A stretch of DNA of 64,000 nt from Minisyncoccia bacterium (GCA_041485695.1 JBGPJZ010000002.1:65499-129498), one strand, 5' to 3'; counted from the first letter of the stretch, positions 6,724-55,181 are shown. Translations and numbers: made by a program. Notes: generated by a model from the sequence alone, not told the origin.

Positions 6724-7644
6724 TTATCTTAAGGGTGTGCCGGAGGGTATCACGGGCATATCTTTGTACGAAGCAAATAAGTCCTCGAGGGAACGGACAG
6801 GTACTTCTGTATTCAGCGCCCGAGCCTTGGGCAGATTCCAGTACGGGACGCTGGTCCAGCGATGGTGTTCGAAGTGATACCAGGTATTGTGCGGAACAAA
6901 AACGAGTCGGTACAGGAACCGAGCATAAATGCGATGGACATCCGCCGTACCCATGTGTTCTGTCCAGATTCGTAGGCGAAAGACTGCCCAGAATGCCGAC
7001 CCCATAGCGGCAAACCAGATCAGTAAGATCCACCACATACTGAAGTGCCAGATGATAAAGAGCGCCACTACCCACCAGACAACCGGTACCAACTTATCTT
7101 TAATGGAGTCCCGCACTGCGATATAACTCAATACAAAAAACTCTTCTTCTACACCTCCAAAAAGAAACATATCCCCGAAGAAAAACCGTATGATGCGCGC
7201 TACTCTCGCAGGCAAGTCATAGTGCGGAGCGAGGTGTTTCTTGTGGTACAACTCTGGATCCTTTTCAGTTCCTAGATTTTCATGATGCGTAAAATGAAAC
7301 CGCCGATAACCGCTGATGCCGATGCCCATCGGCCAGAACACGAGCAATTCAGCAAGGAAATCATTGAGCCACAATTTACTGCTAATGTGCCCATGGGCCC
7401 CTTCATGCCCCAGAATGACAATGGAGTGTTGACGTGTGCCTGTTACGAATGTCGCGAGAATGGCAGTAATGATGAGAAAAATATCCCAGAGAGGAGCGTA
7501 ACCGCGGCTTTCCGTCAATTGAAAAACTTCATACACGGCTGCCATCGAAAGTCCGATGATTCCCCAGTCTATGAGAGCGGCAAGGAGCCACCGTGCGATG
7601 CTGGGGCGACTTATTGAGGCGGCTTCTGGCGCGGGAGGAGGCAT
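6724..7644 (-). CDS. membrane fatty-acid desaturase family protein (three His boxes)
   Basis: 306 aa with HEGAHG, HFTHH and HFEHH boxes and multiple TM segments. Codons are visibly AT-richer than neighbouring genes. Confidence 0.7.
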   Translation of the reverse strand: MPPPAPEAASISRPSIARWLLAALIDWGIIGLSMAAVYEVFQLTESRGYAPLWDIFLIITAILATFVTGTRQHSIVILGHEGAHGHISSKLWLNDFLAELLVFWPMGIGISGYRRFHFTHHENLGTEKDPELYHKKHLAPHYDLPARVARIIRFFFGDMFLFGGVEEEFFVLSYIAVRDSIKDKLVPVVWWVVALFIIWHFSMWWILLIWFAAMGSAFWAVFRLRIWTEHMGTADVHRIYARFLYRLVFVPHNTWYHFEHHRWTSVPYWNLPKARALNTEVPVRSLEDLFASYKDMPVIPSGTPLR

Positions 7645-29742: not shown

Positions 29743-30516
29743 TTATTTTGCGCGCGCGGCAAGCGTCTTAAACGCCTCCTCCGGGTTCTCGATGATGAGG
29801 TAGCGATACGAGAGCAAGGAGAGCGGGTTAACGTTCCGGATGTCTTCAGTCGCGATATTGCCAAGATTACGGAAGCTCTTCACCGCGTTCGCCTCGTGCT
29901 TTGAAAGCGCAATCAAAACAGTATTCTTGTTCTTCTCGAGCAATTTTGCATCTGCGGCCTTACCGAGCGCGATGAGCGATGCAATCGCTCCCTTCGTCGA
30001 CGGCGCGCCAAAGGCAAACTGGTCGACCAAGATCACTTCGCCGTCTTTTGCCTTGCGTGAGAGCACGGAAACAAGGGCCTGTACCTTCATCTTGCGATTT
30101 ATCTTTTCGTGATAGTCGCGCTCAACTCTCGGCCCGAAGGTAACGCCGCCGTGGCGCCAAATCGGCGAACGTGTCGAACCGTGGCGCGCTTGGCCGGTGC
30201 CCTTCTGCTTCCATGGCTTACGGCCCCCGCCTGCGACCTCGGCGCGGTTCTTGGTGTGAGCGCGGTTCTGTCGCTTGTTCGCCGCAAGGGCGGTTGTTAC
30301 CTGGTGCACCATGTCTGCGCGCCACTTCGCGCCGAAAATTTTTGCTGGGAGCGTTACCGTTCCAACTTTCTTTCCGACCGCTGAAAAGACGGCGAGCTCT
30401 CGTACCTCACCGGCGGCAGGCGCAACTTTCGCAGCGCGAGGCTTCGCAACGCGCTTTACCGACGCCCTCTTCGGGCCGGTGTCCGCAGTCTTACGGTTGA
30501 TAGGTTTTGTAGCCAT
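29743..30516 (-). CDS. rplD: 50S ribosomal protein L4 (Lys/Ala-rich N-terminal extension)
   Basis: ...GGGRKPWKQKGTGQARHGSTRSPIWRHGGVTFGP... preceded by ~35 basic residues. Confidence 0.9.
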   Translation of the reverse strand: MATKPINRKTADTGPKRASVKRVAKPRAAKVAPAAGEVRELAVFSAVGKKVGTVTLPAKIFGAKWRADMVHQVTTALAANKRQNRAHTKNRAEVAGGGRKPWKQKGTGQARHGSTRSPIWRHGGVTFGPRVERDYHEKINRKMKVQALVSVLSRKAKDGEVILVDQFAFGAPSTKGAIASLIALGKAADAKLLEKNKNTVLIALSKHEANAVKSFRNLGNIATEDIRNVNPLSLLSYRYLIIENPEEAFKTLAARAK

Positions 30517-30520
30517 ACAA

Positions 30521-31156
30521 TTATTTACCCGTCTTTAAGGAGGGTTGAGAAACGACCTCGAGCAAGGCGCCGCGTACGCCAGGAACGGCGCCCGAGACGA
30601 CCATTTCGCTCGCGATCGGGTCAATCGCAAGCACCTTTAGATTTTTCACGGTTACGCGGTCGCTCCCCATCCTGCCCGGCATGCGCATGCCTTTGGCGAC
30701 GCGGCCGCCAGCGCGGCCGCCCGAGCCGCCGATAGAGCCGCCCTCGCGCTCCGAGTGCTTCTGGCCGTGGGTCCGCGGGCCGCCATGAAAGCCATGGCGC
30801 TTCACGACGCCTGCAAAGCCGTGGCCTTTTGAAATACCAGATACCTGTACGACATCGCCAATCGCAAATGTATCAATCTTTATTTCAGAACCAACCTCCG
30901 CAGTAGCATCAGTACGAAATTCGCGGATCGCCTTGTAAGCCTTGCCCTTCGTGTGGCCCAAGACTGCCTTGCTGACATTTTTTGTTTTGCGCGTGCCCGT
31001 ACCAACCTGTATAGCCGAGTACGCGTCTTTGCCCTCTTTAGTTTTGACGGCGGTCACGATGACTGAGTCTACCTTGAGCACGGTGCCAGCCAGCGCACGG
31101 CCGTCATCCGTGAAGACTCGCGTCATGCCCTCTTTCTTTGCAAGAATGAATTTCAT
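30521..31156 (-). CDS. rplC: 50S ribosomal protein L3
   Basis: Start at [19 protein letters not shown] (matches the E. coli MIGLVGKKVGMTRIF pattern); ...[22 protein letters not shown]... Confidence 0.9.
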   Translation of the reverse strand: [211 protein letters not shown]

Positions 31157-31194
31157 CGAAAATAGAAATCGCGCACCAGCAATCGCTGGTGCGC
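31157..31194 (-). promoter_or_regulatory. leader hairpin GCGCACCAGC-GAUU-GCUGGUGCGC + U-tract ending 3 nt before the rplC AUG (attenuator-like)
   Basis: Perfect 10-bp stem (31171..31194) followed on the minus strand by GAUUUCUAUUUUCG, then AUG. No SD. Downstream of the TTGCAT/TAAAGT promoter. Confidence 0.4.
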
Positions 31195-31244
31195 GATTTG
31201 CTGGAGGTCCTTCGGCAAGAGCCTCAGGACATAGCGACTCGGGC

Positions 31245-31273
31245 ACTTTACACGAGCCCTAACAATTATGCAA
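31245..31273 (-). promoter_or_regulatory. sigma70-like promoter for rplC block: -35 TTGCAT / 17 bp / -10 TAAAGT
   Basis: Minus-strand TTGCAT (31273..31268) and TAAAGT (31250..31245). Located after the terminator that follows the inserted PGT gene. Confidence 0.45.
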
Positions 31274-31289
31274 GAAACGCAAAACCCGC

Positions 31290-31330
31290 CTCATAAAGAA
31301 GACGCCGTCGCGGTAACCCGCGACGGCGTT
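31290..31330 (-). terminator. intrinsic terminator after PGT gene (ACGCCGUCGCGG-GUUA-CCGCGACGGCGU + CUUCUUUAU)
   Basis: 12-bp perfect stem at 31302..31329 with a U-rich tail on the minus strand. Confidence 0.5.
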
Positions 31331-31353
31331 TATTTTTCGTGATTCTCGATACG

Positions 31354-31938
31354 TCAGATGCCCTGACCCTGGAATACGACGAGGACCGTTCTCCCCAAGA
31401 GACGGAGATCGAGCGCGAAGCATGAGTGCTCGATATACCACAGGTCCCAATTACGGGTTCGGCGGTAGTTCCCTCGCACCGAGGCGGCTCTGCCTTTGAT
31501 CGCGGCCGGTCCCGTGATGCCCGGTCGCACAAAGTGACGCCGACTGAAGCCTGGCACCTCTTTGGCGAGTCGGGCAACGAGATCCACTGGCTGGGGTCGC
31601 GGGCCGACCACACTCATGTCTCCCACGAATACGTTCCAGAACTGGGGGAACTCGTCGATACGTCGCCGCCGAAGGAATTTCCCGAAGCGAGTGAGCCGTG
31701 GGTCGTCTTGTGACGAGATGAAATCCTGTGCGCGAGCTGACCCGGGCTGCATGGTACGGAACTTGTAGCAGCGGAATGTCTTTCCGCCCTTGCCAACCCG
31801 AAGCCCGGCATAGAACGCCCGCCCTTCAGGCGAGTCGATAACGACCATAAGCGCGATAAGCGCGTACAGCCAGCAAAAGCAAAGCAAGAACGTAGCCGAG
31901 ACGGCTACGTCGAAGATACGTTTAACCAAAGAGTACAT
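31354..31938 (-). CDS. monotopic phosphoglycosyl transferase (bacterial sugar transferase family, PglC/WbaP C-domain-like)
   Basis: Start at MYSLVKRIFDVAVS (SD GGAGGG); ...KFRTMQPG...DPRLTRFGKFLRRRRIDEFPQFWNVFVGDMSVVGPRPQ... is the sugar-transferase signature. Inserted between rpsJ and rplC. Confidence 0.8.
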   Translation of the reverse strand: MYSLVKRIFDVAVSATFLLCFCWLYALIALMVVIDSPEGRAFYAGLRVGKGGKTFRCYKFRTMQPGSARAQDFISSQDDPRLTRFGKFLRRRRIDEFPQFWNVFVGDMSVVGPRPQPVDLVARLAKEVPGFSRRHFVRPGITGPAAIKGRAASVRGNYRRTRNWDLWYIEHSCFALDLRLLGRTVLVVFQGQGI

Positions 31939-31975
31939 AGCAAATGCCCTCCGTTTGGACCTAAAACCTGCGTGG

Positions 31976-32004
31976 ACTTTACCGACAGGCCCTCGTATTG
32001 TCAA
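31976..32004 (-). promoter_or_regulatory. sigma70-like promoter for PGT gene: -35 TTGACA / 17 bp / -10 TAAAGT
   Basis: Minus-strand TTGACA (32004..31999) and TAAAGT (31981..31976), ~35 nt upstream of the PGT SD/ATG. Confidence 0.5.
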
Positions 32005-32011
32005 TAGTAAC

Positions 32012-32040
32012 GCAAAACCGGCCATACGGCCGGTTTTGCG
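32012..32040 (-). terminator. hairpin after rpsJ (CAAAACCGGCC-GUAU-GGCCGGUUUUG)
   Basis: 11-bp stem with U-rich 3' half, immediately downstream of the rpsJ stop. Probable terminator/attenuator separating rpsJ from the inserted gene. Confidence 0.4.
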
Positions 32041-32116
32041 CAAGCGAAGCGGAAATTCTTATGGAGACAGTAAGTATTTGTTTATCTCTGCCGGAAGAAG
32101 GACTTCCGCGAAACGT

Positions 32117-32560
32117 CTACGCCATTTTAACGTCAATCGTGACGCCGGAGGGGAGATTGAGATTCGTGAGCGCTTCGATTACTTTCGGCGAAGGGTTCAA
32201 GATATCAATCAAGCGTTTGTGAATGCGCATCTCGAACTGTTCGCGTGCGTCTTTGTGGACGAAGGTCGAACGGTTTACCGTCCAGCGCTTGATTTCGGTC
32301 GGCAAAGGCACTGGGCCGACGACCTTCGCGTCGAGGCGTGCGGCCGTGTCCATAATCTGCTTCACCGAGACATCGAGGATCTTGTGCTCGTATGCGCGAA
32401 CGCGAATACGGAGCTTGTGCTCGACGAGGGGTGCGGCGGGAGCGGCCGCGCTTTTTCTGGCCGGAGCCTTCGCGCGCGGCGCTCCGCCAGCCGGCGGACG
32501 AGCCGCGCTCTTCGCTGACGCTTTCTTCACCGTTCGTTTCGCTTTAACCGCCGTCGCCAT
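32117..32560 (-). CDS. rpsJ: 30S ribosomal protein S10 (Lys/Ala/Pro-rich N-terminal extension)
   Basis: ...HKLRIRVRAYEHKILDVSVKQIMDTA...GPVPLPTEIKRWTVNRSTFVHKDAREQFEMRIHKRLIDI..., preceded by ~45 aa AKRTVKKASAKSAARPPAGGAPRAKAPARK. Confidence 0.9.
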   Translation of the reverse strand: MATAVKAKRTVKKASAKSAARPPAGGAPRAKAPARKSAAAPAAPLVEHKLRIRVRAYEHKILDVSVKQIMDTAARLDAKVVGPVPLPTEIKRWTVNRSTFVHKDAREQFEMRIHKRLIDILNPSPKVIEALTNLNLPSGVTIDVKMA

Positions 32561-32565
32561 TATAG

Positions 32566-33765
32566 TTAGGCCGTAATCTTCGTTACGACGCCGGCTCCAA
32601 CCGTCTTGCCTCCTTCGCGTATAGCGAAGCGCTGATTTGCTTCAAGCGCGACTGGTGCAACGAGCTTCACCTTGAAGGTGATCGTGTCGCCCGGCATCAC
32701 CATCTCCTTCCCTTCCGGCAGGGTCACTTCGCCGGTCACGTCCGTGGTGCGGATGTAGAACTGCGGCTTGTAGCCGGTGAAGAATGGCGTGTGTCGGCCG
32801 CCTTCATCCTTGCCGAGAATGTATACCTCTGCGTCGAAGTCGGTGTGTGGAGTTACCGAGCCCGTCTTCGCGATGACCTGGCCGCGATGCACATCTTCCT
32901 TCTTCGTACCGCGCAGGAGGATTCCGGCATTGTCGCCTGCCATGCCCTCCTGGAGCTGCTTGTTGAACATTTCAATGCCAGTGACGGTCGACTTCGCCGT
33001 CGGCTTCAAGCCGACGATCTCAACTTCCTCACCCACTTTCACCTTCCCGCGCTCGATGCGGCCGGTGACGACGGTTCCGCGGCCTTCAATCGAGAAGATG
33101 TCTTCTATAGGCATCAGGAACGGCTTGTCCACTTCACGCGCAGGGATCTCGAAGTACGTGTCCATGGTGTCGACGAGCTCCTTCGCCTTCATCGCCCATT
33201 CGTCCTCGGCGTTCTTCGCTTCAAGCGCTTTCAAGCCCGAGCCGCGGATAATCGGCGTATTAACGCCGTCGTAGCCCTGCTTCGTAAGGAGTTCGCGCAC
33301 TTCCTCTTCAACGAGGTCGATGAGGTCTGCCTCGGCGACCATGTCTACTTTGTTGAGGAAGACGATGAGCTTTTTCAATCCCACCTGCTTTGCAAGGAGG
33401 ATGTGCTCACGCGTCTGCGGCATCACGCCGTCGGTGGCGGCGACGACGAGGACGGCTCCGTCCATCTGGGCGGCGCCCGTGATCATGTTCTTAATATAGT
33501 CAGCGTGGCCCGGCGCATCGATGTGCGCGTAGTGGCGAGAGGGCGTCTCGTACTCCGAGTGGTGGAGGGCGATGGTAATGCCGCGCGCCTTCTCTTCCGG
33601 TGCGCTGTCGATTTTATCAACGGCCTCAACCCTAGCGCTGTAGCCCTTGTCCTTCAGCATATCGAGCGTATGGAGGATGCCAGCGGTGAGGGTCGTCTTG
33701 CCGTGGTCGACGTGACCAATAGTGCCGACGTTCATATGCGGCTTCGCACGATTGAATTCTGCCAT
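32566..33765 (-). CDS. tuf: elongation factor Tu
   Basis: Start at [30 protein letters not shown]...; full GTPase and beta-barrel domains through ...[13 protein letters not shown]. Confidence 0.95.
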
Positions 33766-33907
33766 GGTAGCGATTGGTAAATAATTCGCCCACTTGCGTG
33801 GGAGAAAGCTTAATAATTGACGCGCCAACCGCGCACACGACAAAGTACACGCGGTGACTTGCGTTATCTATGAATGTACACAAAACGTCCCGAAAACGCA
33901 AGCGACT

Positions 33908-33952
33908 TCAAAAAAGTAAGACGGCCAGTGTTTCCTTACGAAACACTGGCCG
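33908..33952 (-). terminator. intrinsic terminator CGGCCAGUGUUUC-GUAAG-GAAACACUGGCCG + UCUUACUUUUUUG
   Basis: 13-bp perfect stem plus U-tract on the minus strand. The stop codon of the 68-aa ORF lies in the loop. Confidence 0.6.
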
Positions 33953-34142
33953 ATTCTTGTACGTCGCTGGTAATTCGCAAAAGGGGTTCGATTCCTTTGC
34001 GCATCTGCGCAATAATGAGCAATGCACCGTGGATGTCTTCGTCGTTCACACAGGCCTCAAGTTCGTCCAGATACGTTTTGAGCGCATGTGCTCGTTGTAC
34101 ACGAGGACTCTCCGCCCCCAAATCTTGATCGGTACCAGACAT
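33936..34142 (-). CDS. small hypothetical protein (68 aa) between fusA and tuf
   Basis: MSGTDQDLGAESPRVQRAHALKTYLDELEACVNDEDIHGALLIIAQMRKGIEPLL..., preceded by a strong SD (GAGGGAGGAAATC ATG) and followed by an intrinsic terminator. Confidence 0.4.
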   Translation of the reverse strand: MSGTDQDLGAESPRVQRAHALKTYLDELEACVNDEDIHGALLIIAQMRKGIEPLLRITSDVQESASVS

Positions 34143-34247
34143 GATTTCCTCCCTCAGTTCTAAAAGAGGTAACGCGCCATTTTTCAATAAAGTAACGCTT
34201 GGCCGCTGTTTCCCCGAAACAGCGGCCAACTGAGCGAGCGGAACGAT

Positions 34248-34544
34248 TCAAATCAGGTGTTTTGGAACCTCTTTTTTCCCGTTTGGCGTAAAGGGCGGCC
34301 ATGACGGGAGTGGACGTCCGTGATATCGGAGATAGATGCGATAGGCAAACTCAATGCGTCGTTCCCATGGTGGCGGCCTGTCCTTTCGCGGCTTTGGTGA
34401 GAACGGCGCGTTTTCAAGCAGTGCATCTCGAATTTTCGCCACCGCGACGTACTCTTCGTGTGTCACCGGATATCGTCCGCATCCATAGGCAATGTTCGAT
34501 TCTGACACTCTGCTCTGTATGTTCATCTTGCTACTCCCATACAT
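34248..34544 (-). CDS. small hypothetical protein (~92-98 aa) between fusA and tuf
   Basis: MYGSSKMNIQSRVSESNIAYGCGRYPVTHEEYVAVAKIRDALL..., with an AGGGAGAG SD just upstream. Confidence 0.35.
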   Translation of the reverse strand: MYGSSKMNIQSRVSESNIAYGCGRYPVTHEEYVAVAKIRDALLENAPFSPKPRKDRPPPWERRIEFAYRIYLRYHGRPLPSWPPFTPNGKKEVPKHLI

Positions 34545-34594
34545 CTCTCCCTATCATAGCAGTACCAAAAGCCCCGCAATTGTGGAGATTTGTC

Positions 34595-36742
34595 TTATTT
34601 TCGGCTCGCGATAATGTCGTCGGCGACGTTTTTTGGGACAACGTCGTAATGGTCGAATTCCATGGTCATAGAGCCGCGGCCTTCGGTCATAGAACGAAGC
34701 GTCGTCGTGTAGCCAAACATTTCCGAGAGCGGGACTTTTGCTTTAATCGCCTTGTTCATACCGCGATCCTCCATGCCCTCGATGGCGCCGCGCTTACCCG
34801 AGAGGTTGCCGGTGATGTCGCCCATGAATTGCTCGGGGACGACAACCTCAATCCTCATAATTGGCTCAAGCAAGACTGGCTTCGCCCGCTGTGCCGCTTC
34901 TTTAAACGCCATCGATGCAGCGATTTTAAAAGCAATTTCAGACGAGTCGACATCGTGGTAGGAGCCATCGTAGAGCTCGACAGAAATGTCGACAACCGGG
35001 AAGCCGGCCAAGATACCCCTATCCATCGACTCGCGAATACCTTTTTCAACGGGAGCAATAAACTCCTGTGGGATGACGCCGCCCTTGATGTTGTTGATGA
35101 ATTCGAAGTGGTCTTCTCGTGTAACGTTCTTTGCAATCTTCTTCTCGGGGTCGAGCTCCTCCATCTTCTTCATGCGGATACGCACATGGCCGTATTGTCC
35201 CTTACCACCGGTCTGTTTGATGTACTTCCCTTCTGCCTCCGAGTTGCCGAGGATTGTTTCGCGATACGCGACTTGCGGCTTCCCCACGTCTGCGACCACG
35301 TTGAATTCGCGCTTCATGCGGTCTACCAAGATTTCAAGATGGAGTTCACCCATGCCAGAGATAATCGTCTCCATCGTCTCTTGGTCAGAGGTAACGCGGA
35401 AGGTGGGGTCTTCATCTGAAAGTTTCTTGAGCGCCATGCCCATCCTCTCCTGATCGGCCTTGGTCTTAGGCTCGATGCGGAGCGAGACCACCGGTTCATG
35501 GAATTTGATGGTCTCCAAAATAATCGGCGAGTTCTCATCGCAGAGCGTGTGCGAGGTACGGGTATCCTTAAGCCCGACCGCGGCCGCGATTTCTCCCGAA
35601 AATACCTTCTTCACCTCTTCGCGCTTGTCAGCCTGGAGCCGGACGATGCGGCCGACGCGCTCCTTGGTGCCCGTCGTTGCATTGTAGAGATACGAGCCTG
35701 CTTCAAGCGTGCCCGAGTAGACGCGAAAGAAGGTCAACTGCCCGACAAACGGGTCAGCTTGGAGTTTGAACGCGAGCGCGGTAAAGGGCTCGTCATCATT
35801 GGCGTAACGCACCACCTCTTCACCCGTCTTCGGATTGATGCCTTTCACGGGCGGCATGTCGAGGGGCGACGGGAGATAGTCGACGACGCCATCGAGGACG
35901 AGCTGGACGCCCTTATTCTTCAAAGCCGAGCCCGTGAAGACGGGGAAAATCTCATTATTAATGACTGCCTTGCGCAGAATCTTTTTTAGCTCTTCAACAC
36001 CTGGCTCCTCCCCTTCTAAATACGCGGCCATTGCCACGTCATCGTGCTCGACGATGCGCTCGATGAGCTCTGCGCGAAACTTTGTTGCCTCTTCGAGGAG
36101 GTTCGCGGGCACCTCGCCCTCAACGACATCCTCGCCCATCTCGCCCTCAAAATGGTACGCCTTCATTTTGAGGAGATCGATGACGCCTTCATGCTCACTC
36201 TCCTCCCCTATGGGGATCTGCATACGCACGGCCTTTTTTGAAAGGCGGTCGAGGATAGATGCATAGGAGCGCTCAAAGGAGGCGCCTGTGCGGTCAAGCT
36301 TGTTAATGAAGCAGAGGCGCGGCACGTTTGCCTCGTCGGCGTAGCGCCAGTTCGTCTCGCTTTGCGGCTCAACACCCGCGACACCGTCGAAGACGACGAC
36401 GGCGCCGTCGAGGACGCGCATCGAGCGCTTCACCTCAACGGTGAAGTCAATGTGCCCCGGCGTGTCGATGACGTTGAAGCGGGTCTTTTTTGAAATATCC
36501 TTTTTGTCCTTTTCAGTCGAAAGCGTCCAAAAGCAGGTGATGGCAGCAGCGGTGATAGTGATGCCGCGCTCGCGCTCTTGCTCCATCCAGTCGGTAGTCG
36601 TATCGCCCTCGTGCACCTCGCCGATCTTGTGCTGGCTCCCGGTATAGAAAAGGACGCGTTCAGACGTGGTCGTCTTGCCCGCGTCGATGTGCGCGATGAT
36701 GCCGAAGTTGCGCACGCGTTCTAGTGGATAATCTCTGTTCAT
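34595..36742 (-). CDS. fusA: elongation factor G
   Basis: Start at [35 protein letters not shown]...; all five EF-G domains present. Confidence 0.93.
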
Positions 36743-36809
36743 GAGTGGAATAAAAAATGCCCGTGGGGCGTTTCCGTACAATAGCGAATTCTGTATAAAA
36801 AGCAAAGTC

Positions 36810-36838
36810 TTGAAGTATGCACGCATTACTAGTACATT
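36810..36838 (+). promoter_or_regulatory. sigma70-like promoter -35 TTGAAG / 17 bp / -10 TACATT (plus strand)
   Basis: Located ~22 nt upstream of the SD/ATG of the antisense 116-aa ORF. Confidence 0.4.
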
Positions 36839-36860
36839 CAGCAACGGAAAGGAGATTGTC

Positions 36861-37211
36861 ATGACCGCCACGATCCGCACTCGACGCGCTAATAAATGGT
36901 CGCCGCATAAAGTCGTGAGCAAGCATGAAAAGCAGCTCAAGCGGCTCGGCTTTAAGCGTTGGCACCGTTCTGAATGTGTCGTTACCTCCCTGCCGCTCCC
37001 CTGCTTTCGAGTGAACCTCTTAGTAGCAACAGCGTGCGGGGCCGTGTATCGGACCTACGCGAGAGACGAACATCGGCGCGACTGGTACATTGGAGAAAAG
37101 GTTGACTTGAAACCGCTCGGTTTCGTTGAGCTCATCCGTTCCACCGCACCGGTCGATATCGAAACTCTCAACTACAAACTCGAGCACCCAAGAGCCATTG
37201 TATATATTTAA
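36861..37211 (+). CDS. hypothetical basic protein (116 aa) on the opposite strand, between rpsG and fusA
   Basis: GGAAAGGAGATTGTC ATG is a strong [43 protein letters not shown]... Followed by an ATCGGCGCC-TCCG-GGCGCCGAT hairpin (37225..37246). Confidence 0.45.
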
Positions 37212-41539: not shown

Positions 41540-42130
41540 ATGACTTACACCGCACGACAATTCAACCTCCCGGCCCTTAAGGGGCTTTCGGAGAAGCAGA
41601 TCAAGGTACACCTCGCGCTCTACGAGGGGTACGTCAAACACGTGAACCTCATCGCAGAGAAGCTAGGGGCGGTGCGTAGCGGCACGCTCGAACTCGACCC
41701 CTACATCGTCGCCGAGCTCCGGCGGCGGTTCGCCTTCGAGTTCGACGGCATGCGCATGCATGAATATTATTTCGAACAGTTCGAGGGGGACAAAGGTGGA
41801 GACCCGGAGTCGGCGCTCGCCAAGGCCGCCGCAGAGAAATACGGGAGCGGAGAGAATTTCCTCACGCATATCAAAGAGGTCGCGGGTACGCGCGGCATCG
41901 GCTGGGTCGTCGTTTACTACGACCCGATCGGCAAAGTGCTTCACACCGTCTTCGTCGGCGATCACGAGCTCGGCCAGCTTGCCGGCCTCCCTATCATCCT
42001 TGCTTTGGACCTCTGGGAGCACGCCTACATGGTCGACTATGTCCCTGCTGAAAAGAAGAACTACGTCGACGCCTTTTTAGATAATGTGAATTGGAGCGTC
42101 ATCGAGTCGCGCTTCGCGAAAGCGATGTAA
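41540..42130 (+). CDS. Fe/Mn-family superoxide dismutase (divergent)
   Basis: 196 aa. C-terminal DLWEHAYMVDY matches the SOD D-x-W-E-H-A-Y-Y signature, with N-terminal helical hairpin His residues. Leaderless-type start (TATACT -10 ~9 nt upstream). The 3' end overlaps the comEC 3' end by ~70 bp on the opposite strand. Confidence 0.65.
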   Translation: MTYTARQFNLPALKGLSEKQIKVHLALYEGYVKHVNLIAEKLGAVRSGTLELDPYIVAELRRRFAFEFDGMRMHEYYFEQFEGDKGGDPESALAKAAAEKYGSGENFLTHIKEVAGTRGIGWVVVYYDPIGKVLHTVFVGDHELGQLAGLPIILALDLWEHAYMVDYVPAEKKNYVDAFLDNVNWSVIESRFAKAM

Positions 42131-43554
42131 ATAAGGGCGGCGTACGCGAGGAGCACGAATATAAACGGGAACGCCGGCAGGTGAAGCGCGGCGAATGGGA
42201 GCGCGCTCCCCCACCGTGCGATAGCGATGATGTAGGCCGTGAGCGCGTACCCCGGGAGCGCAAGCGGCCAGCCAGCGGCGCCGAAGATGGCACCAGCGAG
42301 GCCGGCGAGCGCCGCGAGACCCATTGCGGCCGGCATCACCGCGGTTACGAGGAGATTCGCCGGCACCGAGACTATCGAGAAGACGCCGGTCTGGTAGAGG
42401 AGGAGCGGGAGCACTGCAGCCTGTGCGGAGAGCGTCGTCGCGAGCGCGCTACGCCAGAAGGCGTTCTTGATACGCGCTAATTTGAGCTCAATCAAGGGTG
42501 AGAGCCAAATGAGCCCCGCAGTCGCCGCGACCGAGAGGCCGAAGCCGGGGTCGAAGGCGAGGATGAACGGATTCCACGCGAGAACGAGCACGATGATGGC
42601 GAGGAGGGCGCGACCAGCCGCATAGGTGCGCCCGCTTGCGCGCGCATAGAGAGCGATTAGAGCCATAAGCGCGGCGCGGATTGCCGTTGAAGTCGCGCCT
42701 GCGACTGCCACGAAGAGGACGACCGCAATGGCTCCTGCGAGCGCGGCGCTGCCACGGCGAAATCTCAATACACCGATGAGGTACATCACCCATTCGGCGA
42801 CGACCATCACGTTGTAGCCCGAGAGCACGATGATCTGCACGAGCCCGGTCATGATAAATGCGTTTTGGAGTTCGCTCCCGAGCCCGGTCTTGCCGCCGAT
42901 GACGATGCCGCCGGCAAGCGAGGCGTATGGCTCGGGGAGGGCGGCCGAGAGGCCGCCTAAGAATGCGTGCTTCACCTGCGCAAGCGCCGAGGGCACGGAG
43001 TACCACGGAGCGGGCTCGAGGACCTTGAACGAAGCGTTGTTTATCAAGAATCGCACGCCATCTTTTTGCAGGTATTTATCATAGGCGAAGACGCGGCCCC
43101 CTTCATCGGCGCTTGAAAAGGGTTGCGGCAGGGCGAGCGTGCCTGAAACGCTGACCCGCTCCCCCACCGCTACGCCCGGGTAGCGGTCAGCAACCGCAAG
43201 CATCTTTGCACTTTCTCCGTTCGCAGAGACGAACACCGGCACGCGCTGGTTCGTGTCGCGCACATCAGGGTCGCCGACGACGACTCCTTCGTAACTCACG
43301 AAAGTGCCGAGGGTGGTCGCAAAGTGGGGCGGGAGCGGAGTGTCTGCAAGGTGCATCCGTGCAGCACCAAGCGCGAAGGATATAAAAAATAAAGCGCAGA
43401 GCGTGTACGCGAGCCGCGGCCGCGTTTTCGCGGCCGCGGCAAAAATCCCCGCAAGCATGAAGGTGAAGATGATGATCGGCCAGCCAGAAACGAAAAGCGA
43501 GCGGAGTAAGACCCCGCTCGCGAATCCGCCGACAACAGCGAACAGTGTATTCAT
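42061..43554 (-). CDS. comEC: competence protein ComEC/Rec2 membrane channel (DUF4131 + Competence domains), no fused MBL domain
   Basis: 497 aa polytopic; N-terminal OB-like region (VVVGDPDVRDTNQRVPV...) then the competence-domain TM bundle. Start overlaps the rnhA stop (ATGA). Confidence 0.75.
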   Translation of the reverse strand: MNTLFAVVGGFASGVLLRSLFVSGWPIIIFTFMLAGIFAAAAKTRPRLAYTLCALFFISFALGAARMHLADTPLPPHFATTLGTFVSYEGVVVGDPDVRDTNQRVPVFVSANGESAKMLAVADRYPGVAVGERVSVSGTLALPQPFSSADEGGRVFAYDKYLQKDGVRFLINNASFKVLEPAPWYSVPSALAQVKHAFLGGLSAALPEPYASLAGGIVIGGKTGLGSELQNAFIMTGLVQIIVLSGYNVMVVAEWVMYLIGVLRFRRGSAALAGAIAVVLFVAVAGATSTAIRAALMALIALYARASGRTYAAGRALLAIIVLVLAWNPFILAFDPGFGLSVAATAGLIWLSPLIELKLARIKNAFWRSALATTLSAQAAVLPLLLYQTGVFSIVSVPANLLVTAVMPAAMGLAALAGLAGAIFGAAGWPLALPGYALTAYIIAIARWGSALPFAALHLPAFPFIFVLLAYAALIYIAFAKRDSMTLQFTLSKKAST

Positions 43555-49124: not shown

Positions 49125-50231
49125 ATGTATAAAGAGACCGTAGAAAGACAATTTAAGGCCGCAGATATTGAGATAAACGGCAAAAGGCCATGGGACATTC
49201 AAGTACATGATGAGAGATTCTATAAACGTTTATTCTTGCATCGCTCGCTCGGGTTAGGAGAGTCTTACATGGAAAAGTGGTGGGACTGTGAAAGGATCGA
49301 TCTGTTTATCGAGAAAGTGTCGCGTTCAATCGGAAATAATAAAATAACCATATCCTTTGCGATGTTATGGATTAAAGCCCGTCTTTTTAACTTGCAGTCA
49401 CCACAGGGCGCACGCAAAGTTATTGAGGAGCATTATGACCTCAGCAACGATTTGTACATGTCCTTTCTCGACCGCTATAACCAGTACACCTGCGGATTTT
49501 TCCAAGAGACTACCGACCTCAACAAAGCACAGGAGCAGAAACTAGAACTCATTTGTAAGAAGCTGCATTTAAAACGGGAAGACCGCGTTCTCGATATCGG
49601 GTGCGGGTGGGGTGGTTTCGCTAAATACGCAGCAGAGCACTACGGATGTCGTGTGGTAGGAATTACCATCTCTGATGCACAGCTTGCCTACGCACAAAAA
49701 GACACGGATGGACTACCTGTGGAAATACGCAAACAAGATTACAGGGACTTATCAGGCGAGGAGTTCGACAAAATCGTTATCATCGGGATGATTGAACACG
49801 TTGGTTATAAGAATTATGAGAAACTATTAAAGACAGTAGCAGGGTGTTTGGCCGACGACGGGCTTTTTCTTCTTCATACCATCGGAAGGAACGACAGCGC
49901 GTCTACCGGTGAACCTTGGTCACATAAATACATCTTCCCGAACGGGATGCTTCCCTCTATCAAACAAATCGGAGAAGCGAGCGAAGACGTCTTTGTCATG
50001 GAAGACTGGCATAACTTTGGTCCTTATTATGTCGATACGCTTCTTGCTTGGGACGCAAACTTCCAGAAGAACTGGCTCCAGATAAAAAAGGATTACTCAG
50101 AAACGTTCTTTAGGATGTTTAGATATTATTTCAATAGTTTTGCAGGCGCTTTCAGGGCACGCCATATCCAATTGTGGCAAGTAGTTTTTAGCAAAGGAGT
50201 AACCAATAGGGTTTACGAGCGTGTACGCTAA
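49125..50231 (+). CDS. cfa: cyclopropane-fatty-acyl-phospholipid synthase family methyltransferase (CMAS)
   Basis: ...HYDLSNDLYMSFLDRYNQYTCGFF...LDIGCGWGGFAKYAAEHYG... CMAS signature. Gene is visibly AT-rich (roughly 40-45% GC) against ~60% flanks. Confidence 0.85.
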   Translation: MYKETVERQFKAADIEINGKRPWDIQVHDERFYKRLFLHRSLGLGESYMEKWWDCERIDLFIEKVSRSIGNNKITISFAMLWIKARLFNLQSPQGARKVIEEHYDLSNDLYMSFLDRYNQYTCGFFQETTDLNKAQEQKLELICKKLHLKREDRVLDIGCGWGGFAKYAAEHYGCRVVGITISDAQLAYAQKDTDGLPVEIRKQDYRDLSGEEFDKIVIIGMIEHVGYKNYEKLLKTVAGCLADDGLFLLHTIGRNDSASTGEPWSHKYIFPNGMLPSIKQIGEASEDVFVMEDWHNFGPYYVDTLLAWDANFQKNWLQIKKDYSETFFRMFRYYFNSFAGAFRARHIQLWQVVFSKGVTNRVYERVR

Positions 50232-50232
50232 A

Positions 50233-51663
50233 TTATTGCTCGCGCCAATCGACGAACTGGTACTGGGTCGAGGTAATCGGGGTAAATACGGGCGGATTCG
50301 TTGAATTTTGCCGGTCGAACGTCGTAGTGCGCGTCGGGTACCCCGAATGTTTCCCATTGCCGCAGCCGTAGCCCGAATACGTCCAATACGTGCCGGGCTT
50401 TAAGTTCGACACGATAGTACCGAGGATGGTTAGGGTGTTTTTGTTTGCATACGCAGCGTTCGCACAGGTGTACATATTCATACCGAAGGCGCCTGATTGC
50501 GAGATGAAGATGCCATCAAGCGTAAGGTTCGATGGTGCGTCCGGAGCAATGAGGACATCTCCTTGCGATACGAGCGTGAACCCGGCGCTCCCGTCAAAAA
50601 CGGAGTATACGATGTTGTTTTTAAGGAGCGTGTAGGGGACAACTCCAGCGTGCGCAACATCAGCGACCGCGAGCGTTACCTTGCCGCTTATCGTTCCCTC
50701 AACCCAGGTGTGATCCTCGACATAGATAAGCGGGCAGCCTGAAGGGATGGCGTAGGTGCCGTCCAAGACTTCATTCTGGATAAGCGTGTATTCGGTCTGG
50801 AGCCCGGCGCCCGGGTTACTGACCGGAACGGCCGAGACCGTATTCTCGCTACCCACCCTGTAAACAGTGACGGTTCCGTTCGAATTAAAAATAAGGTGAT
50901 AGCCCTTGAAATAGGCATTGCCGCCGTTACCCGAGCTGGTGCGGGCGAAATAGAGCCCTGTTGCTTGTGCCGTCGTCTTGAGCGCAGAGAAGTCTGCTGA
51001 AATCGCCCCGAAGTCTGTCTGGGGCGTCGGGTACTGCCACAAGCTCTGATCGACACCCGCGCCGAAAACCCCGGGCTTCACTGCAGAAGGAGCGCAGCCG
51101 AAATTCGCATCGCAGGTCCAGGTCGCGAGAGAGCTCGTTACCGGCGACGTCGAGGTGCCGTCCATGCGGATACCGCCGTTTGAATGAAAGGGGCCGAAGA
51201 GGGTCGAACCGACCCATACGCTTGAATTGACGATAAAAGAGTACTGCGCCACTGAAGGCTGCGCATAGCGCGCCCAGAGCGTTTTCGAAACCGTGGGAGC
51301 GTCGCTTGGCACGCCCTTCGAGGTCACATCGATTGAACTCTTCTGCCCGCACGCTGCGTTGCCTGTGATGGAGAGCGTGTAGGTACCGGCGGCACCCCCT
51401 TGCGGGTCAAGGTAGGAAACTTGGTATGGCCCAGGCTGGCCGGTACCGTTCTGCGTGTCACCCGGGAAGTGGGAAAGGAACCAGCGGTAATACTCAAGGC
51501 CCGCTTCAGAAATAGCGAATGATTCCTGTTTCTGCCGCTGCAGCTCCTCTGCGCGATTTTCGAGTAAAACGTACCCTGAAATGGCGGTAAGAACCGAAAA
51601 AAAGATCGCCCCGAATACAAGCACAAGGAGGAGTATCGAGCCCCGTCGGCGGATAGTTTTCAT
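50233..51663 (-). CDS. large pilus-associated protein with PilX-like N-terminal anchor
   Basis: MKTIRRRGSILLLVLVFGAIFFSVL... N-terminal hydrophobic helix, then Gly/Ser/Thr-rich beta-rich domain. Last gene of the pilus operon, overlapping the upstream pilin stop. Confidence 0.4.
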   Translation of the reverse strand: MKTIRRRGSILLLVLVFGAIFFSVLTAISGYVLLENRAEELQRQKQESFAISEAGLEYYRWFLSHFPGDTQNGTGQPGPYQVSYLDPQGGAAGTYTLSITGNAACGQKSSIDVTSKGVPSDAPTVSKTLWARYAQPSVAQYSFIVNSSVWVGSTLFGPFHSNGGIRMDGTSTSPVTSSLATWTCDANFGCAPSAVKPGVFGAGVDQSLWQYPTPQTDFGAISADFSALKTTAQATGLYFARTSSGNGGNAYFKGYHLIFNSNGTVTVYRVGSENTVSAVPVSNPGAGLQTEYTLIQNEVLDGTYAIPSGCPLIYVEDHTWVEGTISGKVTLAVADVAHAGVVPYTLLKNNIVYSVFDGSAGFTLVSQGDVLIAPDAPSNLTLDGIFISQSGAFGMNMYTCANAAYANKNTLTILGTIVSNLKPGTYWTYSGYGCGNGKHSGYPTRTTTFDRQNSTNPPVFTPITSTQYQFVDWREQ

Positions 51664-52256
51664 TTTTGAGTTGAAAGGTTGCGCAAGGTCGCACCGGCAG
51701 AGAGCGTATACACGGTCGGTGCGCGGGTCGGGTTCACGTCGGTGAGGACCGTCAATTTGACCGAAATGATGGAAGGGATGACCGGAGCCGCCCCGAGAGC
51801 GGTCCCGTTGCTATCATAGTACGTGAACAGCGGCGTCGACGTACCATTACGTATGTTATCAACCACGAGAGTCACGACCTCTGGTTGCCCAGCATACGAA
51901 GGGGGGTTGCCAATCGGCTCGGTTACTCCGCGATAGAAGGTGAACCCTGAAAGGTAGTAGCGGACTTTCTCAAGTACCGACGTACCGGATATGTCAGAGT
52001 AAAAAGTGATGGTCGAGGTGGCTGCAGCGGCAATCGGATAGGAGCCATCAGCAGCATACGAGGCCTCGCGCAGGTTAGAGACGGCGTTTTGAATACTGCG
52101 GCGCGCGCTCTCAACCGCCTGGGTCTGCTCCAGCGTGTAGGCATTCGTTTGATAGAAATATTGAATCAAGAATCCCACTGCGAGCATGACGACCACCGAG
52201 ATAGTCATTGTTACCAGCATCTCAATGAGCGTAAAACCGCGAGGGAGGTAGGCCAT
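51660..52256 (-). CDS. type IV minor pilin / pseudopilin (prepilin-type N-terminal methylation motif)
   Basis: MAYLPRGFTLIEMLVTMTISVVVMLAVG... is the class III signal peptide G|FTLIEML. Confidence 0.8.
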   Translation of the reverse strand: MAYLPRGFTLIEMLVTMTISVVVMLAVGFLIQYFYQTNAYTLEQTQAVESARRSIQNAVSNLREASYAADGSYPIAAAATSTITFYSDISGTSVLEKVRYYLSGFTFYRGVTEPIGNPPSYAGQPEVVTLVVDNIRNGTSTPLFTYYDSNGTALGAAPVIPSIISVKLTVLTDVNPTRAPTVYTLSAGATLRNLSTQK

Positions 52257-52260
52257 ACGA

Positions 52261-53964
52261 TTAGGGAAAAGCAGCCTCGAATGTCGTCAGTCCTCCCACG
52301 GCAACGCCCGGGAACTGCGTCGTGGTGTATCCCGCCTTTGATATCGTAACGGTATAGGTGTTGGCAGAGATGTTGCCGAAATACGCATTGCCGCACGCAG
52401 AGCTCACGACGCTTGCAGAAAATCCTGCTCGAGTAAGGTCGACTGTAGCACCACTGACTGCGAGCCCTCCTGAATCGACGACCGAGATAAAGAGCGAATT
52501 CGTTGTGGCGGCGCCAAGCACGAGAGAGGCGGCAAGCGACTCTCCAGCTGCAAGGGTATACGGGGGCGTGGGGCACGTATCGACGATATCGTAACCTGGC
52601 ACCGAGAGAGCGTACCCGTCCCGTTCAAGAGGGGCTGCCACCTGCGCGCCCGCTCCTGTTGTCGTATTCACCACTGTCTTGTAAATGGGCGCCCCGCCGG
52701 CGGTCGAACCAATCGTCTTAGTGCCTGTAAGCATAAACGATACATTCGCTAAAGGAGCGGGGCCCGCAAGCGCAGAGATTGACCAGCCAAGGATGGAAGG
52801 GGCTGTCGTGGTAGCGGTCGAAAGCAGGGCTCCTATCGCAAGCGAGGGATAGGTCGAGGTTGAAATAGTTGAGAGATTGATGGGGAAAGTCATGAATCCG
52901 ACTGAATTGCCAGGGAGTACCGCGTCAGGGAGAAGCGCTCCAGAGCCGTCGTAGATTTGAATAGCTGCAGACGTATCGGTCGTGGTCGAAAGCGCTGACG
53001 AGACGCTCTCCCACCTCGAAAGGTACTGCGGAGCGAACGCGATGGAGCGAACGTTCCCGTTCACCTCCCCTGGGTTAAGAGTAAGCGTCCCGCCTGAAAC
53101 AATGACGCTTGAAGAAGCTGCGATGTTTGAACCGTTCGCAAACGTATCCGCGAACGTCGTAGTTGCAGGGGGTGAAAAGGTCGAAAGCGTCAGCACTCCC
53201 ATGAGGTCAATCGCAAAGGTCCCCGTTGTCGTTTGATCTTTTGAAATAGTGAGTAATCCGGGAGTCGGGTTCGCATTCTGTGCATCTACCGGGTAGGTCT
53301 GAGCCGAGGAGCAGCCGCTCTTGCTCACGTACACTTGGTACTCTGACGACGTCGCGGCACCCGGCAAGTAGACGATGCCGCTCATGTTGCTAAAGGTGGT
53401 GAGGTCAACGGGGGGCGACGTGCTTGTATTTATGATGTGGACGGTGGCGCCCGAGAGGCAAGCGCCAGCCGGGTCGACCACCTTGACCTGGAGCGTCCCA
53501 CCGCCCGTTGAACTTTCGATGGTGGGCGGTACGAAATTCGAAATGAACGCGATGCTTTTAGCGATCCCTGCGATCACATATGAGACTGAAACCTTAGCGA
53601 CTTTGTAGTCAGTCGTGATGCCAGTCTGATCTAAGGCGCCCGTGCCATCAGCAGGGTCATCGACGTATTCAATGAACGTGTGCGTTACGAAATCCACGCC
53701 GCTCACGGTCGTCGTTGCGACCTGCGGTATCAGCCCTGCAGGAATGCCACCCACGGTGCCCAAGGAGTCGTAGGCGAGGCCGCGCAAGTATTCCACTTGG
53801 CTCTGCGCAACAGAGCTTGCAGAGGCACTGGCCTTGCCCACGATTGAAAGGATGATTGAAACGCGCAGGAGCCCGAGGAGGGCAAGAAACAGCGCCAGGA
53901 AGATTGCGATACCCACGATGGTCTCGATAAGACCGAATCCCCGCGCATGGTGCGAGGTTGGCAT
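52261..53964 (-). CDS. large type IV pilin (567 aa) with prepilin N-terminus and CarboxypepD_reg-like Ig domains
   Basis: ...HHARG|FGLIETIVGIAIFLAL... prepilin motif; long Thr/Ser/Gly-rich extracellular region with ...SGATVHIINTS...YQVYVSKSG... domain repeats. Confidence 0.75.
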   Translation of the reverse strand: MPTSHHARGFGLIETIVGIAIFLALFLALLGLLRVSIILSIVGKASASASSVAQSQVEYLRGLAYDSLGTVGGIPAGLIPQVATTTVSGVDFVTHTFIEYVDDPADGTGALDQTGITTDYKVAKVSVSYVIAGIAKSIAFISNFVPPTIESSTGGGTLQVKVVDPAGACLSGATVHIINTSTSPPVDLTTFSNMSGIVYLPGAATSSEYQVYVSKSGCSSAQTYPVDAQNANPTPGLLTISKDQTTTGTFAIDLMGVLTLSTFSPPATTTFADTFANGSNIAASSSVIVSGGTLTLNPGEVNGNVRSIAFAPQYLSRWESVSSALSTTTDTSAAIQIYDGSGALLPDAVLPGNSVGFMTFPINLSTISTSTYPSLAIGALLSTATTTAPSILGWSISALAGPAPLANVSFMLTGTKTIGSTAGGAPIYKTVVNTTTGAGAQVAAPLERDGYALSVPGYDIVDTCPTPPYTLAAGESLAASLVLGAATTNSLFISVVDSGGLAVSGATVDLTRAGFSASVVSSACGNAYFGNISANTYTVTISKAGYTTTQFPGVAVGGLTTFEAAFP

Positions 53965-53967
53965 AGG

Positions 53968-55179
53968 CTAGAATGCTGACGAAAGCGAGTAGATTGGCGC
54001 AATCATCGCGACGGCGAAGACACCTACCATGCCTCCGATGAAAAGCATCAAGACCGGCTCGATGATCGTCGAGAGATCCTTCGTCTTTTGCGAGACGTCG
54101 CCCTCGTAAAACTCTGCCACCTGGAGGAGCATCTCGGCAAGCTTGCCGGTTTCCTCTCCCACGGCGACCATATCGCTCATCATGAGCGGATAGAGCTTGG
54201 GGTGCTCGATAAACGCGGCTGAAAGAGGGTCGCCCTTCTTGACCCTCAAGGCTGCCTCACCTAGCACCTTCGCGAACAGGGGCGCTCCCACGACCTCTTC
54301 GGTTATTGAAAGGGCACTCAGCACGGGCACGCCCGCCGAGAGAAGCGAGGCAAGGGTGCGCGAGGCGCGCGCCGCGAATGTTTCGCGGACAAGCTCTCCC
54401 ACGACTGGCGCATAGAGCGCGATGCGCAATACCACGGCACGACCTACTGGAGAACGTACGAAGGCGAGACCTCCAACGACGAGGAGGACGAGAGAGCCGA
54501 TGACTACATAGGTATGATTCACCATGAAGTTTGAGACGGCGACAATGATCTGCGTCGCAAGCGGTAACTTGACCCGAAGCTGTGAGAAGGTCGCCGTCAA
54601 GGTTGGCACGACATAGATGAGCATGAGGACAGCGACGATCACGATGGCGCCCATGACGATTGAAGGGTAGATCATCGCTCCCTTTATCTTGCGCGAGAGA
54701 TCTTCGGCTCGCTCCATCTGCGTGCTCACGACCGTGAGCGCTTGCGCGAGCCCTCCCGACTCTTCGCCAGCTTTGACCATGGCGATAAAGAGCTTTGAGA
54801 ACACCTTGGGGTGCTCTCCGAGCGCCTCGTGGAGCGTCGACCCTTTAGTGATCGTCGCCGAGACATGCGCCGCTATCTCTCGCAGATGCCTGTTGCGGGA
54901 CTGCCGTTCGAGTATTGAGAGCGCCCGAGAGAGGGAGAGGCCAGCCGTGAGCATCGCCGAGAGGTTTTTCGACATCGTAATGATCTCTTGGCGCTTCACT
55001 CCCGTGCCAATCACGAGATTGAGACGCTGTGGGAGCCTTAATCCACCGCCTTCGGCTATCGAAACCACCGAACCTCCCTCTTTTTGCACGAGGTCATACA
55101 CCGCGAAGCGCGACTCTGCCTCGACGAAGCGTTCTTCGTTGGTTGCCCCTCCTTTTTTTATGGTGACGCGGAATTTCAT
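53968..55179 (-). CDS. pilC: type IV pilus assembly platform protein PilC (two T2SSF domains)
   Basis: 403 aa with duplicated GspF-like domains and 3 TM segments. Confidence 0.85.
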   Translation of the reverse strand: MKFRVTIKKGGATNEERFVEAESRFAVYDLVQKEGGSVVSIAEGGGLRLPQRLNLVIGTGVKRQEIITMSKNLSAMLTAGLSLSRALSILERQSRNRHLREIAAHVSATITKGSTLHEALGEHPKVFSKLFIAMVKAGEESGGLAQALTVVSTQMERAEDLSRKIKGAMIYPSIVMGAIVIVAVLMLIYVVPTLTATFSQLRVKLPLATQIIVAVSNFMVNHTYVVIGSLVLLVVGGLAFVRSPVGRAVVLRIALYAPVVGELVRETFAARASRTLASLLSAGVPVLSALSITEEVVGAPLFAKVLGEAALRVKKGDPLSAAFIEHPKLYPLMMSDMVAVGEETGKLAEMLLQVAEFYEGDVSQKTKDLSTIIEPVLMLFIGGMVGVFAVAMIAPIYSLSSAF

Positions 55180-55181
55180 AC

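Follow-up and report, generated by a model that had tools for sequence, protein, structure and literature searches.

Bacterial pangenomes reportedly contain integration hotspots that are flanked by core genes, as Oliveira et al. are said to have described in Nat Commun in 2017. In ribosomal gene clusters, insertions of a few genes between operons have been documented, for example, bfd-bfr or ilv-leu between str and S10 (Brandis 2021, PMC8046335). A candidate L4 ribosomal leader (r-leader) has been placed upstream of rplC in Archaeoglobi (Eckert and Weinberg 2020, PMC7247131), and it is the only published rplC-proximal L4 leader candidate that we found. For PglC of Campylobacter jejuni, a phosphoglycosyl transferase (PGT), the importance of a proline-containing helix-break motif has been described; Pro24 is proposed to bind polyprenyl phosphate, and the substitution P24A inactivates the enzyme (PMC6133551). 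A literature search for PGTs in the Candidate Phyla Radiation (CPR) turned up no paper. All of these subjects bear on a 64-kb stretch of DNA from a Minisyncoccia bacterium (GCA_041485695.1 JBGPJZ010000002.1:65499-129498; the whole stretch is called the window below, with positions counted from its first letter), in which a small PGT gene lies between rpsJ and rplC, the genes for ribosomal proteins S10 and L3. The best explanation, to which we give a probability of about 70%, is that this junction is a permissive spacer between two operons, that it captured a PGT cassette with duplication of a promoter region, and that the enzyme has been kept under selection.

A probable operon boundary after rpsJ

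On the minus strand, where all of the features below are found unless stated otherwise, the window reads fusA, tuf, rpsJ, a 194-aa open reading frame (ORF), rplC, rplD, rplW, and rplB. The closest L3 relatives are Candidatus Kaiserbacteria/Paceibacterota metagenome-assembled genomes, at 69 to 79% identity, and by sequence the window genome is that of a Kaiserbacteria-like member of the Paceibacteria (Patescibacteria/CPR). The arrangement rpsJ-PGT-rplC was recovered in two Joint Genome Institute (JGI) metagenome contigs and in one Logan contig from the Sequence Read Archive; because independent assemblies carry it, an assembly artifact can be dismissed.

The stop of rpsJ and the ATG of rplC are 960 bp apart. 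An earlier note on this DNA, made from the sequence alone, had described a ~960-bp insert within the S10 operon. The length is right for the spacer, but the segment inserted between two direct repeats (described below) is only ~732 bp, and the placement inside an operon fails for this lineage. Since rpsJ is joined to tuf and followed by a hairpin, and rplC has its own promoter and leader, the site is better regarded as an inter-operon spacer than as an operon interior. The tuf gene, encoding EF-Tu (32566 to 33765), stops 5 nt before the ATG of rpsJ (32117 to 32560; 147 aa; PF00338 at 5e-34 over residues 51 to 145 and NCBIfam rpsJ_bact at 4e-38), and the two genes are tightly spaced in all related loci, where tuf is 71 to 93% identical and always abutted by rpsJ. 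Downstream of rpsJ, 37 of 39 relatives show a hairpin that resembles a terminator. In cargo-free genomes the T tail of this hairpin continues directly into a −35 box, TTGCAT. That box belongs to the rplC promoter, TTGCAT-17-TAGAGT, which almost every Kaiserbacteria-like locus has kept, at −105 to −145 relative to the ATG.

In an E. coli-type S10 operon, rpsJ and rplC follow one another in a single unit, and the leader lies upstream of rpsJ. By sequence, the window has a spacer, a hairpin, and an rplC promoter between the two genes; rpsJ begins 5 nt past the tuf stop, and no Rfam leader is found in the window. The break in the ribosomal cluster of this lineage would then come one gene further on than in E. 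coli. The rpsJ gene would be the translationally coupled last member of a tuf-rpsJ unit closed by a terminator hairpin, while rplC would open another unit, equipped with a conserved promoter of its own and a structured leader that resembles an attenuator.

Cargo in the spacer

How unusual is an extra gene at this position? The earlier note had proposed to compare the synteny of rpsJ and rplC in related genomes, and the junction proves to be variable. In 33 genomes with L3 at least 69% identical to that of the window, the spacer measures 162 to 2384 bp (median, 845 bp), with none at or below 60 bp, so an insert is ordinary for this lineage; among the 36 Paceibacteria that are more distant, the median falls to 108 bp, and 15 have spacers of 60 bp or less. 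ORFs of at least 95 aa in the spacers form 44 clusters, of which 41 are singletons. A Pfam search on 30 spacer ORFs gave domains at or above the curated cutoff for 13 and none for the other 17. The families found are NYN, PG_binding with Trypsin_2 (in a protein of 668 aa), OMPdecase with Pribosyltran (in two genomes), TrmB, DoxX, CarboxypepD_reg, HicA, PaaX_M, and Bac_transf. The two distantly related Paceibacteria that share the pairing of pyrF, for orotidine 5′-monophosphate decarboxylase, with a phosphoribosyltransferase gene (L016:4316-5814 and L061:4354-5787) have L3 proteins 75% and 56% identical to that of the window, and their pyrF proteins are 39% identical to each other.

Conserved flanks around a gene content that differs among relatives are what is expected of a hotspot, and both are found here. 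Because the spacer genes are unrelated in almost every relative, the location of the PGT gene points to a permissive cargo site and is not evidence of coregulation. The rarity asserted by the earlier note holds in one respect only: in a scan of metagenome contigs, none of 80 PGT loci was found beside the genes for S10, L3, L4, or EF-Tu, but inserted cargo at the rpsJ-rplC junction is commonplace in the lineage.

The phosphoglycosyl transferase

What does the inserted gene encode? The earlier note had recognized a PglC/WbaP-like monotopic PGT, and this identification is secure. The gene (31354 to 31938; 194 aa) matches PF02397 (Bac_transf) from end to end, at 8e-56 and 188.8 bits against a cutoff of 27, with residues 6 to 190 spanning positions 1 to 179 of the 179-position profile. 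The ORF includes KFRTM and DEFPQFWNVFVGDMSVVGPRPQ. In an alignment of 78 homologs, K59, R61, and M63, D95-E96, and P113-R114-P115 are invariant; taking this alignment together with a second one of 12 sequences, the catalytic Asp-Glu dyad, PRP, KFR(T/S)M, and the N-terminal K6-R7 occupy invariant or nearly invariant columns. Sequence matches in the PDB are WbaP and PglC, with E values of ~1e-25. The AlphaFold (AF2) model is confident, with a mean predicted local distance difference test score (pLDDT) of 91 and a predicted template modeling (TM) score (pTM) of 0.87, and a Foldseek search with it returns PglC (8e37_A; E value, 6e-13; TM scores, 0.74/0.78) and WbaP (8t53; E value, 6e-11). Among NCBIfam models the greatest similarity is to the EPS_sugtrans and WcaJ catalytic domains, which are hexose-1-phosphate transferase domains, all of them below the equivalog cutoffs. 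Most likely, the enzyme would use a nucleotide sugar as donor and polyprenyl phosphate as acceptor, moving a hexose-type sugar-1-phosphate between them on the cytoplasmic side of the membrane and thereby priming the synthesis of an envelope glycan.

The sole close relative of this PGT (P0002, on contig L003) is 77% identical and likewise lies between rpsJ and rplC. The two genes are equal in length and differ by no indels or stops; the rate of nonsynonymous substitution (dN) is 0.14 and that of synonymous substitution (dS) is 0.89, a dN/dS ratio of ~0.16. The gene is intact, and the pseudogene that the earlier note had named as a reason to abandon its proposal is not borne out. By its substitution pattern, the gene is under purifying selection and is being maintained. 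Recent horizontal transfer was considered on the basis of composition and set aside, as its GC content and its GC content at third codon positions (GC3), 0.69, equal those of the neighboring genes. A longer ORF of 229 aa starting at a TTG at 32043 was also rejected, because it would extend across the rpsJ hairpin as well as the promoter, and the Shine-Dalgarno (SD) sequence and the conserved start MY(S/P)xVKRIFD favor the ATG at 31938.

Outside the lineage, the nearest homologs are Bacteroidota-type proteins of 46 to 47% identity, and these are located in ordinary glycan clusters. The best matches in the metagenome-contig scan are 38 to 44% identical. In that scan, this particular PGT lineage is carried only by the window, two identical JGI contigs, and one Logan contig.

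A cassette between two probable promoter copies

The signals that the earlier note had listed around the PGT gene are all present on the minus strand. Upstream of the gene is a promoter-like site, TTGACA-17-TAAAGT (31976 to 32004), with 10 of 12 matches in a consensus scan; at the equivalent place L003 carries TTGACA-17-TAAGGT. An SD sequence, GGAGGG (31947 to 31952), lies 8 nt before the ATG and is conserved in L003. The two hairpins claimed are indeed strong. The one after rpsJ (32011 to 32040; inverted repeat I3) has 13 perfect pairs and a GUAU loop and folds at −26.9 kcal/mol (z = −5.25), and it was missed by a simple terminator scan because its T tail is weak. The one after the PGT gene (31295 to 31336; inverted repeat I1), found by a terminator scan of both strands, is of the bidirectional type, with an A tract, a stem, and a T tract; its stem (31302 to 31329) has 12 pairs, 10 of them GC, its tail is CTTCTTTATG, and it folds at −28.9 kcal/mol (z = −5.5). 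The rplC promoter-like site of the window, TTGCAT-17-TAAAGT (31245 to 31273), is a single match in the 64 kb, with 0.02 expected by chance.

A direct repeat of ~52 nt brackets the cassette. Copy 1 (31971 to 32023) consists of the 3′ arm of the rpsJ terminator and the PGT promoter region, and copy 2 (31240 to 31290) combines an orphan 3′ half-stem of that terminator with the rplC promoter region. The copies are 731 to 733 nt apart and align in two blocks, one of 18 nt at 89% (repeat D3) and one of 12 nt at 83% (repeat D6). The half-stem in copy 2 is complementary to the 5′ arm of the rpsJ hairpin 737 nt away (inverted repeat I4), and the same pair of repeats is found in L003. Because the repeat that flanks the cassette includes the promoter, the PGT promoter reads as a diverged duplicate of the rplC promoter. 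It thus appears to be a paralogue of the latter that lacks the rplC leader, and going by their sequences, the two promoters may behave similarly at the basal level.

We infer the following course of events. A cassette consisting of the PGT gene with its own SD sequence and terminator would have entered immediately downstream of the ancestral rplC promoter, before the window lineage separated from at least one other lineage in the sample. The insertion would have duplicated ~52 nt, a stretch with the 3′ terminator arm of rpsJ at one end and the −10 box at the other, and one promoter copy would now drive the PGT gene while the other still serves rplC.

A structured leader upstream of rplC

Between the second promoter copy and rplC lies a structured 5′ leader of 84 nt (31159 to 31242), recognized by RNAalifold, covariation, a covariance model, and folding stability (z = −6.3). 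It begins with CGCUAYG and consists of a 3-bp closing helix (P0), a variable hairpin (P1), the segment CCU(MY)RGC, and a long, GC-rich hairpin of 15 bp (P2; 31166 to 31199), after which a U-rich tract abuts the rplC ATG. Of the 15 pairs in the RNAalifold consensus, 8 show compensatory changes. When pairs are counted across the alignment, 97.7% of cells are paired and the covariation score is 0.396, compared with 0.122 for shuffled alignments (none of 500 reaches the observed value) and at most 0.061 for slid controls.

The covariance model gives one strong match per Kaiserbacteria-like locus, always upstream of rplC (seen in L003 and L009 to L047), at 57 to 88 bits; the window match, at 31159 to 31242, scores 70.3 bits. 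No match was found in Paceibacteria with contiguous rpsJ and rplC. Searches of Rfam, with the whole window at the gathering threshold and with 31100 to 32120 at E values up to 10, returned only subthreshold hairpin look-alikes. We regard the leader as a candidate ribosomal-protein attenuator that is new to Rfam and, by analogy, of the L4 type.

The leader also bears on where rplC starts. The gene (30521 to 31156; 211 aa; PF00297) heads the rplC-rplD-rplW-rplB unit and shows homology from residue 1, the N terminus MKFILAKKEGMTRVF being aligned from residue 1 in at least 70 relatives. A 241-aa rplC starting at a GTG at 31246 (30521 to 31246), as given in some database entries, was rejected, since the extension coincides with the covarying leader and L3 homology begins at the ATG at 31156. 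The longer call is probably a misannotation.

Alternative explanations

Why would a PGT gene reside among ribosomal genes? The answer of the earlier note was that selection favors coregulation of the enzyme that primes envelope glycans with ribosome synthesis and growth rate, for which reason it sits in the ribosomal superoperon. This now seems unlikely. It is true that the PGT promoter resembles its rplC paralogue, with a common −10 box (TAAAGT) and a flanking repeat, and that the arrangement has persisted through a dS of ~0.9, but hairpins on either side insulate the cassette, which comes without the rplC leader, the likely regulatory element of the ribosomal unit, for which the window holds a single match. 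Most relatives have unrelated genes or nothing at the site, so that placement as such lends no specific support to a link between growth and surface glycosylation. A further PGT gene does occupy the spacer in two relatives (L033:5282-5853 and the same place in L034), with its own TTGACG promoter-like site, an AAGGAGG SD sequence, and a terminator, in the same order of terminator, promoter, SD sequence, gene, and terminator as in the window, and its presence might point to a benefit that recurs. However, accessory genes of the small PGT type are common, and two of them among ~30 different cargoes are for this reason compatible with chance. Could both descend from a single ancient insertion in an ancestor of the Kaiserbacteria, passed on vertically to the window lineage and to L033/L034 and repeatedly replaced or lost elsewhere, as opposed to two captures? 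The likeness of the two cassettes in position, orientation, and architecture would fit, and PGTs evolve fast, which makes the observed identity of 41 to 42% between the two PGTs, at 73% L3 identity, not impossible. Still, the two proteins are not each other's closest relatives: in a neighbor-joining tree they are not sisters, the window PGT ranks 23rd among the matches of the other, and it is nearer to the Bacteroidota-type proteins mentioned above. The noncoding flanks and promoters of the two cassettes differ as well, and genomes that share the leader subtype of the window carry other cargo or none, so that many losses would be needed. A common insertion is therefore doubtful.

A different concern is the enzyme itself. 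Residues 11 to 33 of the PGT contain no proline, while 117 of 122 homologs have the re-entrant-helix proline of the Ser/branched-chain amino acid (BCAA)-Pro motif; where these read WLYPILA, the window protein has WLYALIA. The usual motif GPV(F/I)F is altered, GITGPAA replaces GITGxAQ, and no partner glycosyltransferase, flippase, or polymerase gene was found among the 30 window ORFs scanned. Given that the corresponding substitution leaves PglC catalytically dead and that its Pro24 is the proposed binder of polyprenyl phosphate (PMC6133551), might the protein be an inactive or decaying remnant, or one repurposed for something other than glycosyl-phosphate transfer to polyprenyl phosphate? We judge this to be quite improbable. 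A dN/dS ratio of ~0.16 with neither indels nor stops across two lineages is not the record of a decaying gene, the Asp-Glu dyad, PRP, KFRTM, and the N-terminal Lys-Arg are intact, and the 77%-identical relative and three other homologs lack the proline too. The AF2 model, confident as it is, keeps the helix break, at residue 21, though this may be driven by the alignment.

Several observations weigh against the interpretation that we prefer, namely, capture of a functional PGT cassette by a permissive inter-operon spacer. The absence of the proline makes canonical activity uncertain, and no partner genes were found among the window ORFs scanned. The terminator, promoter, SD sequence, ORF, second terminator, and rplC promoter have the anatomy of the independent transcription unit that the earlier note had claimed, but promoter-like sites as such are not enriched in the region (3 found versus 1.6 expected). 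The U tail of the rpsJ hairpin is weak, and read-through from tuf-rpsJ into the PGT gene is therefore possible. The direct repeat has diverged (~70 to 89% identity in blocks), and part of it could be convergent promoter sequence. No integrase or transposase is among the Pfam matches in the spacers, and scans for tRNA genes, covering 42 loci as well as the window, were negative.

A more ambitious version of the preferred interpretation is also conceivable. In it, the rpsJ-rplC junction of Kaiserbacteria is a dedicated, recombination-accessible cargo slot, with the tuf-rpsJ terminator as insulation upstream and an undescribed L4-type rplC leader as its downstream limit, that repeatedly captures accessory envelope genes. 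In the window it would hold a proline-less PGT under a duplicated ribosomal-protein promoter, with glycan priming set at ribosomal-gene strength and perhaps with a noncanonical lipid acceptor that suits a lipid-scavenging CPR cell. We offer this tentatively and would not give it even odds.

Neighboring genes

The spacer between fusA (34595 to 36940) and tuf also holds an insert, of ~830 bp (33766 to 34594), with two small ORFs that match no family, each followed by a hairpin, at a low GC3 of 0.49 to 0.52. One encodes 98 aa (34248 to 34544), and the other, which has an SD sequence, encodes 68 aa (33936 to 34142). In relatives this spacer varies from 121 to 4112 bp, and tuf-rpsJ is thus a conserved pair between two variable junctions.

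Profile searches recovered S10, L3, and L4 in the window, and two of these proteins are extended. S10 has a Lys/Ala-rich N-terminal extension of ~46 to 50 aa (32423 to 32560) that differs in length among relatives, and L4 has ~53 aa ahead of its Pfam domain (30358 to 30516).

Farther away are comEC (42061 to 43554) and a type IV pilus cluster (51660 to 56939) encoding an N_methyl pilin-like protein, a CarboxypepD_reg protein, a PilC-like T2SSF protein, and a PilB-like T2SSE protein. These genes are consistent with natural competence, which could feed the exchange of spacer cargo. The window also encodes a fatty acid desaturase (6724 to 7644), a CMAS cyclopropane-fatty-acid synthase (49125 to 50231, plus strand), and an Fe/Mn superoxide dismutase (41540 to 42130, plus strand), and such lipid-modifying and oxidative-stress enzymes are noteworthy for a reduced CPR genome.

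Implications

Coregulation as first stated would have meant that surface glycosylation is firmly tied to ribosome synthesis, and the comparative data remove most of that implication. What takes its place is a ribosomal cluster split after rpsJ in an uncultivated CPR lineage, with the fusA-tuf and rpsJ-rplC junctions acting as hotspots for small cargo. Such hotspots matter for (i) marker-gene binning, (ii) phylogenomics, and (iii) the choice of neutral insertion sites in Patescibacteria genetics. The spacer hotspot and the candidate ribosomal leader RNA, with its strong covariation, are by-products of this analysis and are more novel than the placement of the PGT gene. As for the enzyme, a naturally proline-less monotopic PGT under purifying selection is a test case for the proposed role of the proline in binding polyprenyl phosphate.

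Comparison with known systems

By its sequence, the window PGT is a new and slightly atypical member of a well-known family. Like Campylobacter PglC and the catalytic domains of WbaP and WcaJ, it is ~200 aa long, and one hydrophobic helix at its N terminus leads into a soluble domain. It shares with PglC and WbaP the Lys-Arg dyad, KFRTM, the Asp-Glu dyad, and PRP, and its modeled fold matches 8e37/8g1n (TM scores of 0.74 to 0.78) and 8t53. Unlike them, it lacks the Ser/BCAA-Pro helix break, has GITGPAA in place of GITGxAQ, and stands alone between ribosomal genes, outside any glycan cluster.

The candidate rplC leader can be set beside the E. coli S10 leader, which mediates attenuation by L4, and the Archaeoglobi candidate. 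As in those systems, a structured leader precedes the operon for L3, L4, L23, and L2, and a terminal GC-rich hairpin with a U-rich tract comes just before the first start codon. The window leader differs in that it precedes rplC rather than rpsJ, occurs only in Kaiserbacteria-like genomes, and has no match in Rfam.

The spacer itself resembles the insertions surveyed by Brandis (2021, PMC8046335) in that unrelated genes have settled at an operon-operon junction while the flanking operons remain collinear. In contrast to those insertions, the junction used is that of rpsJ and rplC, which in E. coli and the Bacilli is the interior of the S10 operon, and the content differs in nearly every genome instead of going back to one clade-inherited event.

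With the integration hotspots of pangenomes the locus has in common its core flanks, tuf-rpsJ and rplC, around a highly variable accessory content. It departs from them in that the spacers scanned yielded no integrase, transposase, or tRNA gene and in that its inserts are very small, at 0.2 to 2.3 kb, and lie inside a ribosomal protein cluster.

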